A model generated the notes under the pieces. The model was not told the origin of the DNA. It did no database searches and worked only from the letters and a program-made list of their open reading frames with translations. 4,057 nt of DNA from a virus (Duplodnaviria; Heunggongvirae; Uroviricota; Caudoviricetes), in IMG/VR virus record IMGVR_UViG_3300029873_000288, positions 1 through 4,057 of that record; one strand, written 5' to 3'. How positions within the stretch are numbered: position 1 is the stretch's first letter; each line of letters begins with the position of its first letter. The translations under genes and the position numbers were made by a program. Below, in pieces: positions 1-4,057 of this stretch.

Positions 1-1
1 G

Positions 2-451
2 TGCGTGGTCATCATTGCCCTGCTGGTGGCCTGTGGTGCGCTTAGTCTGGGGCTGAATCATTACCGTGATAACGCCATTACCTACAAAGCCCAGCGCGAC
101 AAAAATGTCAGAGAACTGAAGCTGGCGAACGCGGCAATTACTGACATGCAGATGCGTCAGCGTGATGTTGCTGCGCTCGATGCAAAATACACGAAGGAGT
201 TAGCTGATGCGAAAGCTGAAAATGATGCTCTGCGTGATGATGTTGCCGCTGGTCGTCGTCGGTTGCACATCAAAGCAGTCTGTCAGTCAGTGCGTGAAGC
301 CACCACCGCCTCCGGCGTGGATAATGCAGCCTCCCCCCGACTGGCAGACACCGCTGAACGGGATTATTTCACCCTCAGAGCGCGACTGATAATAATGCAA
401 AAACAACTTGAAGGGGCACAGCTATACATTCGAGAGCAATGCCTCAGATAA
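2..451 (+). CDS. Rz: Rz-like i-spanin (inner-membrane spanin subunit of the lysis cassette); 5' end lies upstream of the window
   Basis: Open frame runs from the window edge to TAA at 449-451. The translation (..[107 protein letters not shown]..) is near-identical to lambda Rz as recalled. An N-terminal hydrophobic segment is followed by a coiled-coil-like charged region, and an Rz1-like gene is embedded in the +1 frame. The GTG at 5 is probably not the true start. Confidence 0.9.
207..389 (+). CDS. Rz1: Rz1-like o-spanin (outer-membrane lipoprotein), entirely embedded in the +1 frame of Rz
   Basis: ATG at 207 is preceded by AAGGAG at 195-200. The 60-aa product [20 protein letters not shown].. 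has a lipobox (VVGC, Cys20) and a proline-rich mature region ([15 protein letters not shown]), and ends at TGA 387-389. It is almost identical to lambda Rz1 as recalled. Confidence 0.85.
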
Positions 452-758
452 AAACCGGCCAAGGATAATCCGCTGAAGATTCGCCGGTGGCTAAAGTGTG
501 CCAAGAGTTCAATTTACGCAATTACTCCTGTCGATGCTATGCACCGTCTTTGTGAAGTCAATGGATACCTGATTTATTTCTGTGCGCTGTATCGTCGCTG
601 TACTCTTGCATTAATTATGACTGTAGCCTGACGGGGAACTCCTTCTGCACAAGTGTGGGGGAATAATCAAAAACGATGCACACCGGGGTTACCGGGTACA
701 CATATTTCATCATGCCAGCGAGTCCGGTTCTGGTACGGAAGAAACCGGACGTTATGAT

Positions 759-1169
759 TTAGTGCGGAAATATTTGTGTAGTGTTCTGAATGTTCTCAGT
801 AAAGAGTAATGAATTATCAAAGGTATAGTAATATCTTTTGTTTTCGTGGATATTTGTAATCCATCTGAAAACCCCTGCTGTAGCAAGATTTTTCCTGTAT
901 TCGTAAAATGATAACTCTCCTGATTTGAATCCTTTTAAGGTGGCTTCTATAAGGCATTTATTTTTTGAAAATCTTACATTTACAACCTTACCCTGTCCTT
1001 TTATTAAAACCGTATTATCGTTTTCAAGAACAAGATGAATATTCTCTGTGGCTAAATAGTAAATGTAATGTGAGACATTGTGACGTTTTAGTTCAGAATA
1101 AAACCAGTGATAGTTTAAATTATTTCGCACTTTATCGAATATTTGTTTAAAAATGGCAACCTGAGCCAT
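759..1169 (-). CDS. DUF1398-family protein, homologous to the lambda p78 'putative envelope protein' (YbcV/YdfO-like); function unknown
   Basis: Minus-strand ORF with stop TAA (revcomp of 759-761). The preferred start is the ATG at 1167-1169 ([11 protein letters not shown]..), which has a GGAAGG Shine-Dalgarno 9-14 nt upstream. The alternative upstream ATG at 1182-1184 (MEGTTMAQ..) has no SD. The 136-aa product resembles lambda p78 ([34 protein letters not shown]..) as recalled. Confidence 0.8.
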
Positions 1170-1226
1170 TGTAGTACCTTCCATGTGATATGAGGGGGCG
1201 TAGTCTGCACGATTATCTAAATTGCT

Positions 1227-1460
1227 TCAATCTGGTCTGATCTGTTTTCTGAGCAATTCAGTAATGTCACTCTTTTCTTTGTTTGCTTCAGGCGAAACTC
1301 TTTTTTCTGAGCACAGTCTCCGGCGGCAGGCTTCAATGACCCAGGCTGAGAAATTCCCGGACCCTTTTTGAACAAGAGCGATGTTAATTTGTTCAATCAT
1401 TTGGTTAGGAAAGCGGATGTTGCGGGTTGTTGTTCTGCGGGTTCTGTTCTTCGTTGACAT
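1227..1460 (-). CDS. Small Arc/Mnt-like ribbon-helix-helix (RHH) DNA-binding protein, 77 aa, function unknown
   Basis: Minus-strand ORF from ATG (revcomp of 1458-1460) to TGA (revcomp of 1227-1229). It has a basic N-terminal tail (MSTKNRTRRTTTR) followed by NIRFPNQMIEQINIALVQKGSGNFSAWVIEA, which aligns position by position with the P22 Arc strand-helix-loop-helix (NLRWPREVLDLVRKVAEENGRSVNSEIYQRV). The 5' two-thirds of the gene and the flank up to cos look near-identical to the lambda right end as recalled. Weak SD (AGGG, 7 nt spacing). Confidence 0.7.
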   Translation of the reverse strand: MSTKNRTRRTTTRNIRFPNQMIEQINIALVQKGSGNFSAWVIEACRRRLCSEKRVSPEANKEKSDITELLRKQIRPD

Positions 1461-1629
1461 GAGGTTGCCCTGTATTCAGTGTCGCTGATTTGTATTGTCT
1501 GAAGTTGTTTTTACGTTAGGTTGATGCAGATCAATTAATACGATACCTGCGTCATAATTGATTATTTGACGTGGTTTGATGGCCTCCACGCACGTTGTGA
1601 TATGTAGATGATAATCATTATCGCTTTAC

Positions 1630-1636
1630 GGGTCCT
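1630..1636. other. cosQ (termination element for DNA packaging), approximate position
   Basis: The segment TTTACGGGTCCTTTCCGGTGATCCGACAGGTTACG immediately left of cosN matches the lambda right end as recalled. The 7-bp GGGTCCT lies about 24-30 bp upstream of the top-strand nick, where lambda cosQ maps. The exact boundaries are from memory and uncertain. Confidence 0.5.
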
Positions 1637-1659
1637 TTCCGGTGATCCGACAGGTTACG

Positions 1660-1671
1660 GGGCGGCGACCT
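1660..1671. other. cosN, the 12-nt cohesive-end sequence (GGGCGGCGACCT); terminase nicks are expected at 1659/1660 (top strand) and 1671/1672 (bottom strand)
   Basis: Exact lambda cohesive-end sequence GGGCGGCGACCT, flanked on the left by ..CAGGTTACG (lambda right end) and on the right by CGCGGGTTTTCGCTATTTATGAAAATTTT (lambda left end). Confidence 0.85.
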
Positions 1672-1710
1672 CGCGGGTTTTCGCTATTTATGAAAATTTT
1701 TAGGGAAAAA

Positions 1711-1725
1711 TCAGATCCGTTCTTC
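1711..1725 (+). promoter_or_regulatory. cosB R3-like element (terminase small-subunit binding site), TCAGATCCGTTCTTC
   Basis: One of three copies of the core TCAGATCC(G/T)TT(C/T)T. Its position and orientation match lambda R3. The right half (CCGTTCTTCTTC) is shared with lambda R3, while the left half differs (TCAGATC here, GCGTTTC in lambda). Confidence 0.6.
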
Positions 1726-1732
1726 TTCTTTT

Positions 1733-1745
1733 TAACTGATTGATT
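1733..1745 (-). promoter_or_regulatory. IHF binding site (I1-like) within cosB
   Basis: The reverse complement of 1733-1745 is AATCAATCAGTTA, a perfect match to the IHF consensus WATCAANNNNTTR. An A/T-rich tract (1746-1769) flanks it on the side expected for IHF sites. It sits between R3 and R2, as I1 does in lambda. Confidence 0.6.
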
Positions 1746-1764
1746 ATAAATAGAATTTTAAAAA

Positions 1765-1781
1765 TATAAAAGGATCTGACA
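1765..1781 (-). promoter_or_regulatory. cosB R2-like element, inverted orientation (minus strand TCAGATCCTTTTAT)
   Basis: GGATCTGA at 1772-1779 is the inverted copy of the TCAGATCC core. It lies between the R3-like and R1-like copies, reproducing the forward-inverted-forward arrangement of lambda R3-R2-R1. Confidence 0.55.
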
Positions 1782-1810
1782 AAGGCTGTTTTTGTTAGAA
1801 AACGCCATTT

Positions 1811-1825
1811 TCAGATCCTTTCTGG
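1811..1825 (+). promoter_or_regulatory. cosB R1-like element, TCAGATCCTTTCTGG
   Basis: Third copy of TCAGATCC(G/T)TT(C/T)T, about 15 bp upstream of the Nu1 start codon. Confidence 0.6.
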
Positions 1826-1840
1826 TTCCCGGGGGAGTGT

Positions 1841-2389
1841 ATGAACGTCAATAAGAAAAAACTGGCCGATATTTTTGGCGTTGATGTCAGGACCATCACC
1901 GCCTGGCAGAGTCAGGGGTTACCACTAGTTTCTGGTGGAGGGAAAGGGACTGAATCAGTTTTTGATACAACTGCTGCCATTCAGTGGTATGCGCAGAGGG
2001 AAGCTGATATTGAAAACGAAAAACTCCGTAAAGAGATCGAGGATTTGAGGGCTGCCAGCGAATCAGACCTTCAGCCCGGCACCATTGATTACGAACGTTA
2101 CCGACTGACGAAGGCACAGGCCGATGCACAGGAGCTGAAAAATGCTCGTGAGGAAGGCCTTGTCCTCGAGACAGAGTTATTTACCTACATCTTTCAGCGA
2201 GTGGCACAGAATATATCAGGGATCCTTGTCCGTGTCCCTCAGACACTGCAGCGTAAATACCCTGATATATCACCCGTACATCTTGATGCTGTGAAAACTG
2301 AAATCGCGAAAGCATCCGATGTGGCTTCTGAAGCCGGTGAGAATGTGCGCAGGTGGATTGATGATTTCAGACGAACTGAGGGCGGCTAA
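1841..2389 (+). CDS. Nu1: Terminase small subunit (Nu1-like; winged-HTH cosB-binding protein)
   Basis: ATG at 1841 is preceded by GGGGGAG (1831-1837); stop TAA at 2387-2389. The 182-aa product [38 protein letters not shown].. is collinear with lambda Nu1 (MEVNKKQLADIFGASIRTIQNWQEQGMPVLRGGGKGNE..) as recalled. It has an N-terminal HTH and the GGGKG motif, and sits immediately downstream of cosB. Confidence 0.95.
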
Positions 2390-4057
2390 TTCTGCAGGAG
2401 CGATAGCAACCGGCCTCCTTGCGCTAAAAATTCCTGTCCCTCTGACGACAGTTCAGTGGGCAGATCGACATTATTACCTTCCGAAAGAGTCATCTTACAC
2501 CCCGGGGCGGTGGGAAACACTGCCGTTTCAGGTTGCCATCATGAACAGCATGGGGAATGACCGGATCCGCACTGTTAATCTGATTAAATCTGCCCGTGTT
2601 GGTTATACAAAGATGTTGCTGGGAGTGGAGGCTTATTTTATTGAGCATAAATCACGCAACAGCCTTCTTTTCCAGCCCACGGATTCTGCTGCTGAAGATT
2701 TTATGAAATCTCATGTGGAACCCACGATCAGGGATGTGCCGGTTTTACTCGATCTTGCACCGTGGTTTGGGCGTAAACATCGTGATAATACCCTCACGCT
2801 GAAACGTTTTTCATCGGGCGTGGGCTTCTGGTGCCTGGGCGGGGCTGCCGCTAAAAACTACCGTGAAAAATCCGTGGACGTGGTCTGCTATGACGAACTT
2901 TCCTCGTTCGAACCGGATGTCGAAAAAGAGGGTTCGCCAACCCTGCTTGGGGATAAACGTATTGAGGGCTCTGTATGGCCCAAATCCATTCGCGGCTCGA
3001 CGCCTAAAATCAAAGGCACCTGCCAGATCGAAAAAGCGGCCAACGAGTCGGCGCATTTCATGCGTTTTTATGTGCCCTGCCCACACTGTGGGGAGGAGCA
3101 GTATCTGAAATTTGGCGATGAATCCACGCCTTTTGGCCTTAAATGGGAGAAGGACAGCCCCGAAAGCGTTTTCTACCTCTGTGAACATCATGGCTGCGTG
3201 ATCCATCAGTCTGAGCTTGACCAGAGCAACGGGCGGTGGATCTGTGAAAACACGGGGATGTGGACCCGTGACGGTCTGACGTTTTTCAGCGCCGCGGATA
3301 ATGAAATTCCGCCGCCGCGCTCCATCACGTTCCATATCTGGACGGCGTACAGTCCGTTCACCACATGGGTACAGATAGTCTATGACTGGCTGGATGCACT
3401 GAAAGATCCCAACGGCCTGAAAACCTTTGTGAACACCACGCTGGGCGAGACCTGGGAAGAGGCCGTGGGCGAAAAACTCGATCACCAGGTACTGATGGAT
3501 AAGGTTGTTCATTACACGGCGGCGGTGCCTGCCCGGGTGGTTTATCTGACGGCGGGCATTGACTCGCAGCGAAACCGTTTTGAGATGTATGTCTGGGGAT
3601 GGGCTCCGGGAGAGGAAGCCTTTCTGGTGGATAAAATCATCATTATGGGACGTCCCGATGAGGAAGAGACGCTGTTACGTGTGGATGCGGCGATCAACAA
3701 AAAATACCGCCATGCGGATGGCACCGAAATGACCATTTCCCGTGTCTGCTGGGACACCGGGGGGATCGATGGTGAAATCGTCTACCAGAGGTCAAAAAAA
3801 CACGGTGTTTTCCGTGTGCTGCCGGTAAAAGGCGCGTCTGTCTATGGCAAGCCGGTGATCACCATGCCGAAAACCCGCAATCAGCGGGGCGTTTATCTGT
3901 GTGAAGTGGGGACGGACACCGCAAAAGAAATTCTCTATGCCCGTATGAAAGCCGAGCCCACGCCTGCGGATGAAGCCACGTCGTATGCCATCCGTTTTCC
4001 TGATGATCCGGAGATTTTTTCGCAGACAGAGGCGCAGCAACTGGTCGCGGAAGAGCT
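2361..4057 (+). CDS. A: Terminase large subunit (gpA-like), 3'-truncated by the window edge; about 565 codons are present
   Basis: ATG at 2361 is preceded by AGGTGG (2351-2356) and overlaps the last 29 nt of Nu1. The frame stays open to the window end. The translation (..[117 protein letters not shown]..) is collinear with lambda gpA as recalled, including the N-terminal ATPase motif KSARVGYTK (codons 76-84, nt 2586-2612). This ORF is missing from the supplied track only because it has no in-window stop. Confidence 0.95.

Follow-up and report, generated by a model that had tools for sequence, protein, structure and literature searches.

We analyzed a 4,057-nt stretch of viral DNA (IMG/VR record IMGVR_UViG_3300029873_000288, positions 1 to 4,057; hereafter the window), which comes from a lambdoid E. 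coli prophage, where it forms the junction between lysis and packaging genes, and is found with 99.5% identity over its whole length in several E. coli chromosomes, with the same genes annotated there. Between Rz/Rz1 and cos/Nu1 two co-oriented genes lie on the minus strand, one of the DUF3950 (YlcI-YnfO) family and one of the DUF1398 (YdfO-YbcV) family (Table 1). An earlier reading of the same DNA (the original prediction) had placed two such genes here, at the positions we find, and had proposed that they form a type II toxin-antitoxin (TA) or regulator-effector module. Judged by sequence comparison, the cassette is already known as the Qin-type ynfO–ydfO pair of E. coli lambdoid prophages. 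We consider it rather likely that the two are separately mobile accessory genes, a strongly constrained and probably ribbon-helix-helix (RHH) resident and an AT-rich DUF1398 cargo, and not a dedicated two-component system.

Identity and constraint of the two genes

The 77-aa product of the upstream gene matched Pfam DUF3950 (PF13132; E 1.9e-20, 72.9 bits vs. a cut-off of 25) and NCBIfam YlcI_YnfO_N (NF041551; E 8.9e-9, 35.3 bits vs. a cut-off of 30). The conserved NFS motif of the YlcI-YnfO family is present, and NFSAW is invariant in the DUF3950 alignments. The open reading frame (ORF) of the downstream gene, taken as 759-1184, matched Pfam DUF1398 (PF07166) over positions 1-119 of 119 (E 3.3e-43, 147 bits vs. 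a cut-off of 22) and the nuclear magnetic resonance (NMR) structure of YdfO, 2HH8 (E 1.4e-69), which bears out the earlier assignment of the larger gene to DUF1398. The start of this gene is the ATG at 1169, with the Shine-Dalgarno-like GGAAGG (1182-1177) 7 nt ahead of it, and the resulting 411-nt gene is likewise the one used in public annotations. A 141-aa version starting at ATG 1184 was rejected, since in lambda a 1-nt indel puts this codon in another frame; the conserved start is thus the ATG at 1169. The 136-aa product and the 57-nt gap of the original prediction both fit this start.

Both are real coding genes under purifying selection. For the N-terminal 49 codons of DUF3950 the ratio of non-synonymous to synonymous substitutions (dN/dS) was 0.03-0.05 at dS 0.8-1.06, and for DUF1398 compared with lambda it was 0.33. 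As the DUF3950 comparison was made against copies with unrelated upstream DNA, the conservation is that of the protein and not merely of cos-flanking DNA. The G+C content (GC) of the DUF1398 gene is 30-33% (an island at 800-1200), vs. 46% for DUF3950 and roughly 50% for the flanks; a GC island of this kind is typical of horizontally acquired, H-NS-silenced cargo.

Comparison with lambda, Qin and DLP12

The annotated Qin locus of E. coli has the order gnsB, ydfO, 57 nt, ynfO, the same as in the window, and the two share both families, their orientation between the lysis genes and a Nu1 homologue, and the 57-nt spacing. Annotations of the ynfO–ydfO arrangement exist for Qin and for more than a thousand genomes of E. 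coli. In lambda the order is lambdap78 (DUF1398, minus strand), lambdap79/ybcW (plus strand) and a DUF3950 ORF at 48109-48303 (minus strand), and in DLP12 it is ylcI–ybcW–ybcV, again with an opposite-strand gene between the two families. The lambda DUF3950 ORF is missing from the RefSeq annotation. RefSeq lambdap78 (L001 1676-2209, 177 aa) starts 41 codons upstream of the conserved MAQ start and, as annotated, is probably over-extended, since the extension is conserved neither in the window nor in Qin.

Comparison of the window with lambda by blastn gave two blocks of homology, window 582-1243 with 82% identity (the p78 region with its 5' flank) and window 1298-1659 with 97% identity (from the DUF3950 N-terminus through cos). 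The 54 nt flanked by these blocks stand where lambda (L001 2162-2774) has a 613-bp segment with the opposite-strand ybcW/lambdap79 and the lambda-type DUF3950 tail, which places a mosaic joint inside the C-terminal tail of DUF3950. The last five codons of the tail consist of DNA whose lambda counterpart lies in the flank upstream of p78 and does not code for DUF3950. A lambda gap with an additional small ORF had been noted in the original prediction, and the 613-bp segment with ybcW/lambdap79 is found there.

It has recently been reported that lambdap79 is the activator of the Vulcan NADase defence system, and that lambda-vir escapers of Vulcan delete lambdap79, probably via recombination with Qin (bioRxiv 10.64898/2026.09.04.749371). 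Recombination with Qin that removes lambdap79 would give the compact layout of the window.

Distribution of the two families

By tblastn over 50,697 phage records, DUF3950 was found in 155 and DUF1398 in 43, so at least 112 records have DUF3950 without DUF1398. In BP-4795 and related E. coli contigs a lone DUF3950 gene lies between the lysis genes and a module of HNH endonuclease, TerS and TerL, and the genes downstream of DUF3950 are on the other strand; the DUF3950 protein of these HNH-type loci is 94% identical and the DNA upstream of it unrelated. In ev243 a small ORF and bor come after DUF3950, and DUF1398 is missing. A second subfamily of DUF3950, with an identity of about 38%, occurs widely among phage satellites of Enterobacterales (L185-L188, positions 4001-4204; L089, 2501-2674), where the gene is solitary and antisense within the AlpA-to-primase operon. 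These satellites have the layout integrase–AlpA–AntA–primase–capsid, and some of the records annotate a long opposite-strand ORF over DUF3950.

The DUF1398 family is small (189 clusters among 1.84 billion representative proteins) and also has solitary members: ycgX beside bluR, four genes in other distant chromosomal or metagenomic contexts, and one homologue in another prophage at a different moron site, between Q and holin. A six-frame hidden Markov model search found no DUF3950 in those distant DUF1398 loci, with positive controls at 1e-13 to 1e-38. Among 5426 complete E. coli genomes DUF3950 was present in 4162 and a full-length, prophage-type DUF1398 in 3011, and most of the remaining DUF1398 matches were ycgX. 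A survey of co-occurrence had been named in the original prediction as a check on the proposed module. Our survey shows that the pairing is not conserved, as each gene is often found without the other, and the co-occurrence and adjacency of partners across lineages that mark a TA pair are not seen here.

Hundreds of frameshifted, lambda-type DUF3950 and DUF1398 proteins (P0017-P0119, P0139-P0239) come from contigs of about 3.4-3.6 kb, and further matches are labelled with implausible hosts (Staphylococcus aureus, Bacillus, the spider Caerostris extrusa, and 'Campylobacter phage CJLB-4'). Since this end of lambda is contained in the sequencing control amplicon of roughly 3.6 kb, we infer that such copies are lambda control DNA that contaminates public assemblies.

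Predicted structures of the two proteins

The AlphaFold2 (AF2) model of DUF3950 has a core with a predicted local distance difference test (pLDDT) score of 83-85 and a tail of low confidence. The model consists of a basic N-terminal arm, a predicted strand RNIRFP (13-18), a helix (19-32), a turn KGSG, a second helix (34-53) and the variable tail; in the alignments there is almost no variation in residues 1-50, and the tails differ. With hhalign, N-I-R-F-P of DUF3950 fell in register with N-L-R-W-P of P22 Arc, but the P-value was 0.014 and the probability 3%. Searches of Pfam at E up to 10 with 19 DUF3950 members and one distant member gave no RHH family, phmmer and profile searches of the PDB gave no RHH structure, and Foldseek with the DUF3950 model gave no match. 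The protein resembles P22 Arc and Mnt in its small size, basic N-terminus, N-x-R-[FW]-P strand, helix, G-x-x turn and second helix, and it differs from them in lacking a significant sequence, profile or fold match and in that its DNA binding is predicted. For want of such a match we regard DUF3950 as a probable, not a demonstrated, RHH protein. The Arc-like RHH protein of the original prediction therefore stands as a plausible prediction, in the strand motif in Arc register and the predicted order of strand, helix, turn and helix, and does not extend to a significant match.

For DUF1398 the AF2 model (pLDDT 88.8) shows an internal duplication, (helix-helix-three strands) x2, and the protein thus has the duplicated alpha-alpha-beta3 unit of the YdfO fold. 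The search for a toxin or nuclease fold that the original prediction had suggested found neither, as the fold matched only its own NMR structure, 2HH8. With PADLOC-DB 2.0 DUF3950 had no match and DUF1398 only Csx23 at E 0.025 (12.6 bits), which does not count as a match to a known defence system. The reservations already voiced in the original prediction, that DUF1398 is not a known toxin fold and has no defence signature, were thus well placed. A weak Pfam match to HEPN_AbiA_CTD was rejected, since its 15.8 bits are below the cut-off.

DUF1398 has no hydrophobic segment or signal peptide (maximum Kyte-Doolittle 19-residue mean 0.39). According to a CRISPR interference (CRISPRi) screen (PMC10695390), lambdap78 is non-essential for lytic growth. 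Given the missing hydrophobic segment, the isoelectric point (pI) of 9.4 and the non-essential lambdap78, we find the labels 'head protein' (RefSeq, PHROG 413) and 'putative envelope protein' unsupported for DUF1398; they look like propagated mis-annotation.

Candidate regulatory sites

A pattern search found a perfect FNR-type box upstream of DUF3950 (Table 1). In E. coli K-12, FNR chromatin immunoprecipitation on microarrays (ChIP-chip) showed binding of the 24-nt TTAAGTTGATGCAGATCAATTAAT at nohB (DLP12) and at nohA/ydfO (Qin) (PMC1802558). The window box has the same 14-nt core as the K-12 24-mer, and the two differ at one flanking base. The box is conserved in all lambda-cos-type loci examined and is absent from the HNH-type loci. 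Centred at 1527.5, and together with a candidate -10 element GACAAT/ACAATA (1499-1493), it would fit a class II FNR promoter, and in the lambda-cos phages DUF3950 is probably transcribed from such a host FNR-dependent promoter.

The 5' flank of DUF1398 contains a weak PdhR-box-like palindrome (Table 1), which agrees with 9 of 14 consensus positions, with G replaced by A in one half-site. In a systematic evolution of ligands by exponential enrichment (SELEX) experiment PdhR selected the homologous sites of DLP12 and Qin, and in a pdhR mutant the mRNA of ybcV was down 10.0-fold and that of ybcW 8.9-fold (PMC7660256). Overexpression of T4 MotB, which alters H-NS-dependent repression, raised ybcV and ybcW more than 1000-fold (PMC7827196), and an ionic liquid strongly induces ydfO (PMC4077768). 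These data on the K-12 homologues would fit a host-controlled expression on the lysogen side, and they point to a possible expression of DUF1398 from its own flank. The ionic-liquid paper also quotes a claim that overexpressed YdfO increases resistance to oxidative stress, to which we give no weight here.

Downstream of DUF1398 the hairpin at 722-750 was tried as a canonical terminator and rejected, as it was no better than shuffled sequence (z-score -0.37) and was not reported by the terminator scan.

Other features of the window

The cos region is of the lambda type, and GGGCGGCGACCT at about 1658-1669 is recognisable as cosN by its likeness to the lambda end sequence. Between cos and DUF3950 a 37-aa ORF (1476-1589, minus strand) matches phrog_9395 and is listed in some phages as a hypothetical protein. 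This ORF, which overlaps with the FNR box and the putative promoter, is unlikely to be a gene. The bor gene is absent from window 452-713. Window 597-623 aligns with the annotated bor promoter of lambda and HK630 with both hexamers degenerate, for window 452-581 neither lambda nor ev099 has a counterpart, and a 32-aa ORF (615-713, minus strand) corresponds, in shortened form, to a hypothetical gene of 54 aa in the annotations of ev099 and PhiR49_1. An Rfam search at E up to 1 found no RNA family anywhere in the window.

Table 1. Coordinates of genes, sites and segments in the window (nt)
Feature	Position	Strand	Remarks
Rz	5-451		
Rz1	207-389		
Hairpin GUCCGGUU...AACCGGAC	722-750	minus	9 nt past the DUF1398 stop; no U tract
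DUF1398 / YdfO-YbcV gene	759-1169	minus	136 aa, 411 nt, pI 9.4
Spacer	1170-1226	minus	57 nt; part of the block homologous to the region upstream of lambda p78
DUF3950 / YlcI-YnfO gene	1227-1460	minus	77 aa, pI 10.9
Weak PdhR-box-like palindrome ATCTGGTCTGATCTGTT	1230-1246		overlaps the last DUF3950 codons, in the 5' flank of DUF1398
Mosaic joint	1244-1297	minus	inside the DUF3950 tail; 54 nt unalignable to lambda
Perfect FNR-type box TTGATgcagATCAA	1521-1534		61-74 nt upstream of the DUF3950 start; pattern search
Nu1	1841-2389		gpA next

Discussion

Taken together, our results favour a model in which the window holds two accessory genes that move separately. DUF3950 would be a small, very basic and probably RHH DNA-binding protein, presumably a dimeric transcription regulator, and a constant resident of the lysis/packaging junction that is always opposed to the long operon around it. 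DUF1398 would be an AT-rich moron carrying its own 5' flank. Its product would be soluble and located in the cytoplasm, with an alpha/beta platform in duplicate and no catalytic signature; it most likely binds a host or phage partner in the lysogen without an enzymatic role, and it would be dispensable for lytic growth. The compact layout would arise by recombination between the conserved DUF3950 and DUF1398 blocks, removing ybcW/lambdap79, and leftward transcription from the DUF3950 promoter may then read through into DUF1398.

As expected of a moron, DUF1398 lies between conserved modules, is present or absent among lambdoid phages and differs in GC from its surroundings. The moron-like arrangement suggested in the original prediction is consistent with the GC island, with the response of the K-12 homologues to host factors and with the non-essential lambdap78. 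The likeness to the lysogen-expressed lambda morons bor and lom includes the position between modules, the orientation opposite to late transcription, a distinct composition, host-regulated homologues and a dispensable role in lytic growth. Bor and Lom are outer-membrane proteins, whereas the products of the window are predicted to be cytoplasmic, and here the promoter is a candidate and the scan gave no terminator.

Several observations weigh against the two-gene model. In a consensus scan neither gene had a sigma-70 promoter upstream of it, and the terminator scan found no terminator after the genes or between them, where the spacer has no terminator-like hairpin; a bicistronic transcript is therefore possible. 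For this allele, the two genes are adjacent in 79 of 80 IMG/VR loci in each direction; as these loci are nearly identical lineages with few independent events, the adjacency reflects shared ancestry. The tail type of DUF3950 correlates with the downstream content, since YnfO-type tails always occur with DUF1398, lambda-type tails with ybcW or bor, and other tails with nothing downstream, and a tail that binds a partner would also give such a pattern. That the tail type tracks the downstream DNA is predicted by a recombination joint inside the tail, and as lambda-type tails occur in loci that have DUF1398 and in loci that lack it, the tail shows no specificity for DUF1398. Finally, no sequence, profile or fold search linked DUF3950 significantly to an RHH protein.

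As an alternative, the RHH protein would autoregulate a bicistronic leftward operon with DUF1398 as the effector (e.g. in superinfection exclusion or changed host physiology), and the solitary copies elsewhere would then be degenerate or re-purposed. The two co-oriented genes only 57 nt apart with no terminator between them, the 79 of 80 adjacency, the DUF1398 that always comes after a YnfO-type tail and the FNR box placed upstream of the first gene only are all in line with this. We nevertheless consider such an operon unlikely, because DUF3950 is far more widespread than DUF1398 and it is the solitary copies that are strongly constrained. Also, DUF1398 keeps its own 5' flank of roughly 75 nt in lambda and DLP12, where the opposite-strand gene intervenes, and DLP12 ybcV responds to PdhR via a site in that flank (PMC7660256); the distant DUF1398 genes have no RHH neighbour, and PADLOC gave no match. 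A type II TA pair, in which DUF1398 would be a toxin and DUF3950 an RHH antitoxin that neutralises it through the C-terminal tail, seems to us very improbable. Gene order and sizes resemble those of ParD/ParE, RelB/RelE, CcdA/CcdB and FitA/FitB, where likewise the upstream gene encodes a small, RHH-like protein whose C-terminal tail varies and the downstream gene a protein of ~130 aa, but the present partnership is conserved in neither direction, the 57-nt gap is untypical of such pairs, and the fold of DUF1398 is unlike any known toxin and places it in no toxin family. In addition, most E. coli genomes keep a solitary DUF1398, ycgX, a gene in between is tolerated in lambda and DLP12, and the tail has low model confidence and takes its last five codons from DNA that does not code for DUF3950 in lambda. 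With at least 112 of 155 DUF3950 records lacking DUF1398, solitary copies both ways and an intervening gene in lambda and DLP12, the TA or regulator-effector module of the original prediction is not upheld.

The remaining alternatives concern the role of each protein by itself. DUF3950 might serve the phage at the lysis/packaging boundary (e.g. in late read-through or in expression of the packaging genes), with DUF1398 as unrelated cargo. Its constant, divergent position just before the packaging genes with two unrelated terminase types (Nu1/A and HNH-TerS-TerL), its antisense position inside a long operon also in the satellites, and the very strong constraint on the protein would all agree with such a function. 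Against this, the lysis/packaging junction is a generic site of moron insertion, RefSeq lambda does not annotate the gene, and the part of the CRISPRi essentiality table that was covered (PMC10695390) does not list it; we give this possibility a low probability, of similar order to that of the regulator-effector operon. More speculative, and in our opinion quite improbable, is that DUF3950 is an oxygen-responsive, FNR-activated RHH repressor, placed antisense in phage and satellite operons, which gates late or packaging expression or acts against competitors, and that in the compact layout it also drives DUF1398 as an anaerobically induced effector (e.g. in superinfection exclusion). A virion or envelope component, finally, is what the database labels would make of DUF1398. 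The labels are all that speaks for this, and the protein has no signal peptide or hydrophobic segment, its gene runs against late transcription, homologues are present at chromosomal sites outside phages, and lambdap78 is non-essential (PMC10695390); we give this notion practically no credence.

The two-gene model has some practical consequences. The TA or defence candidate does not hold up and should not be carried forward as such. The compact layout is the lambdap79-less genotype, as reported in Vulcan escapers, which gives it a practical relevance. If the FNR-activated repressor that also drives DUF1398 were real, the pair would be a new regulator-effector module. Few uncharacterised prophage genes of E. 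coli are as common as these two, and DUF3950 is of modest interest for its unusual constraint, its documented FNR site and an antisense position that is fixed in two kinds of mobile element. Its DNA target, once found, would fill a small gap in lambda biology.

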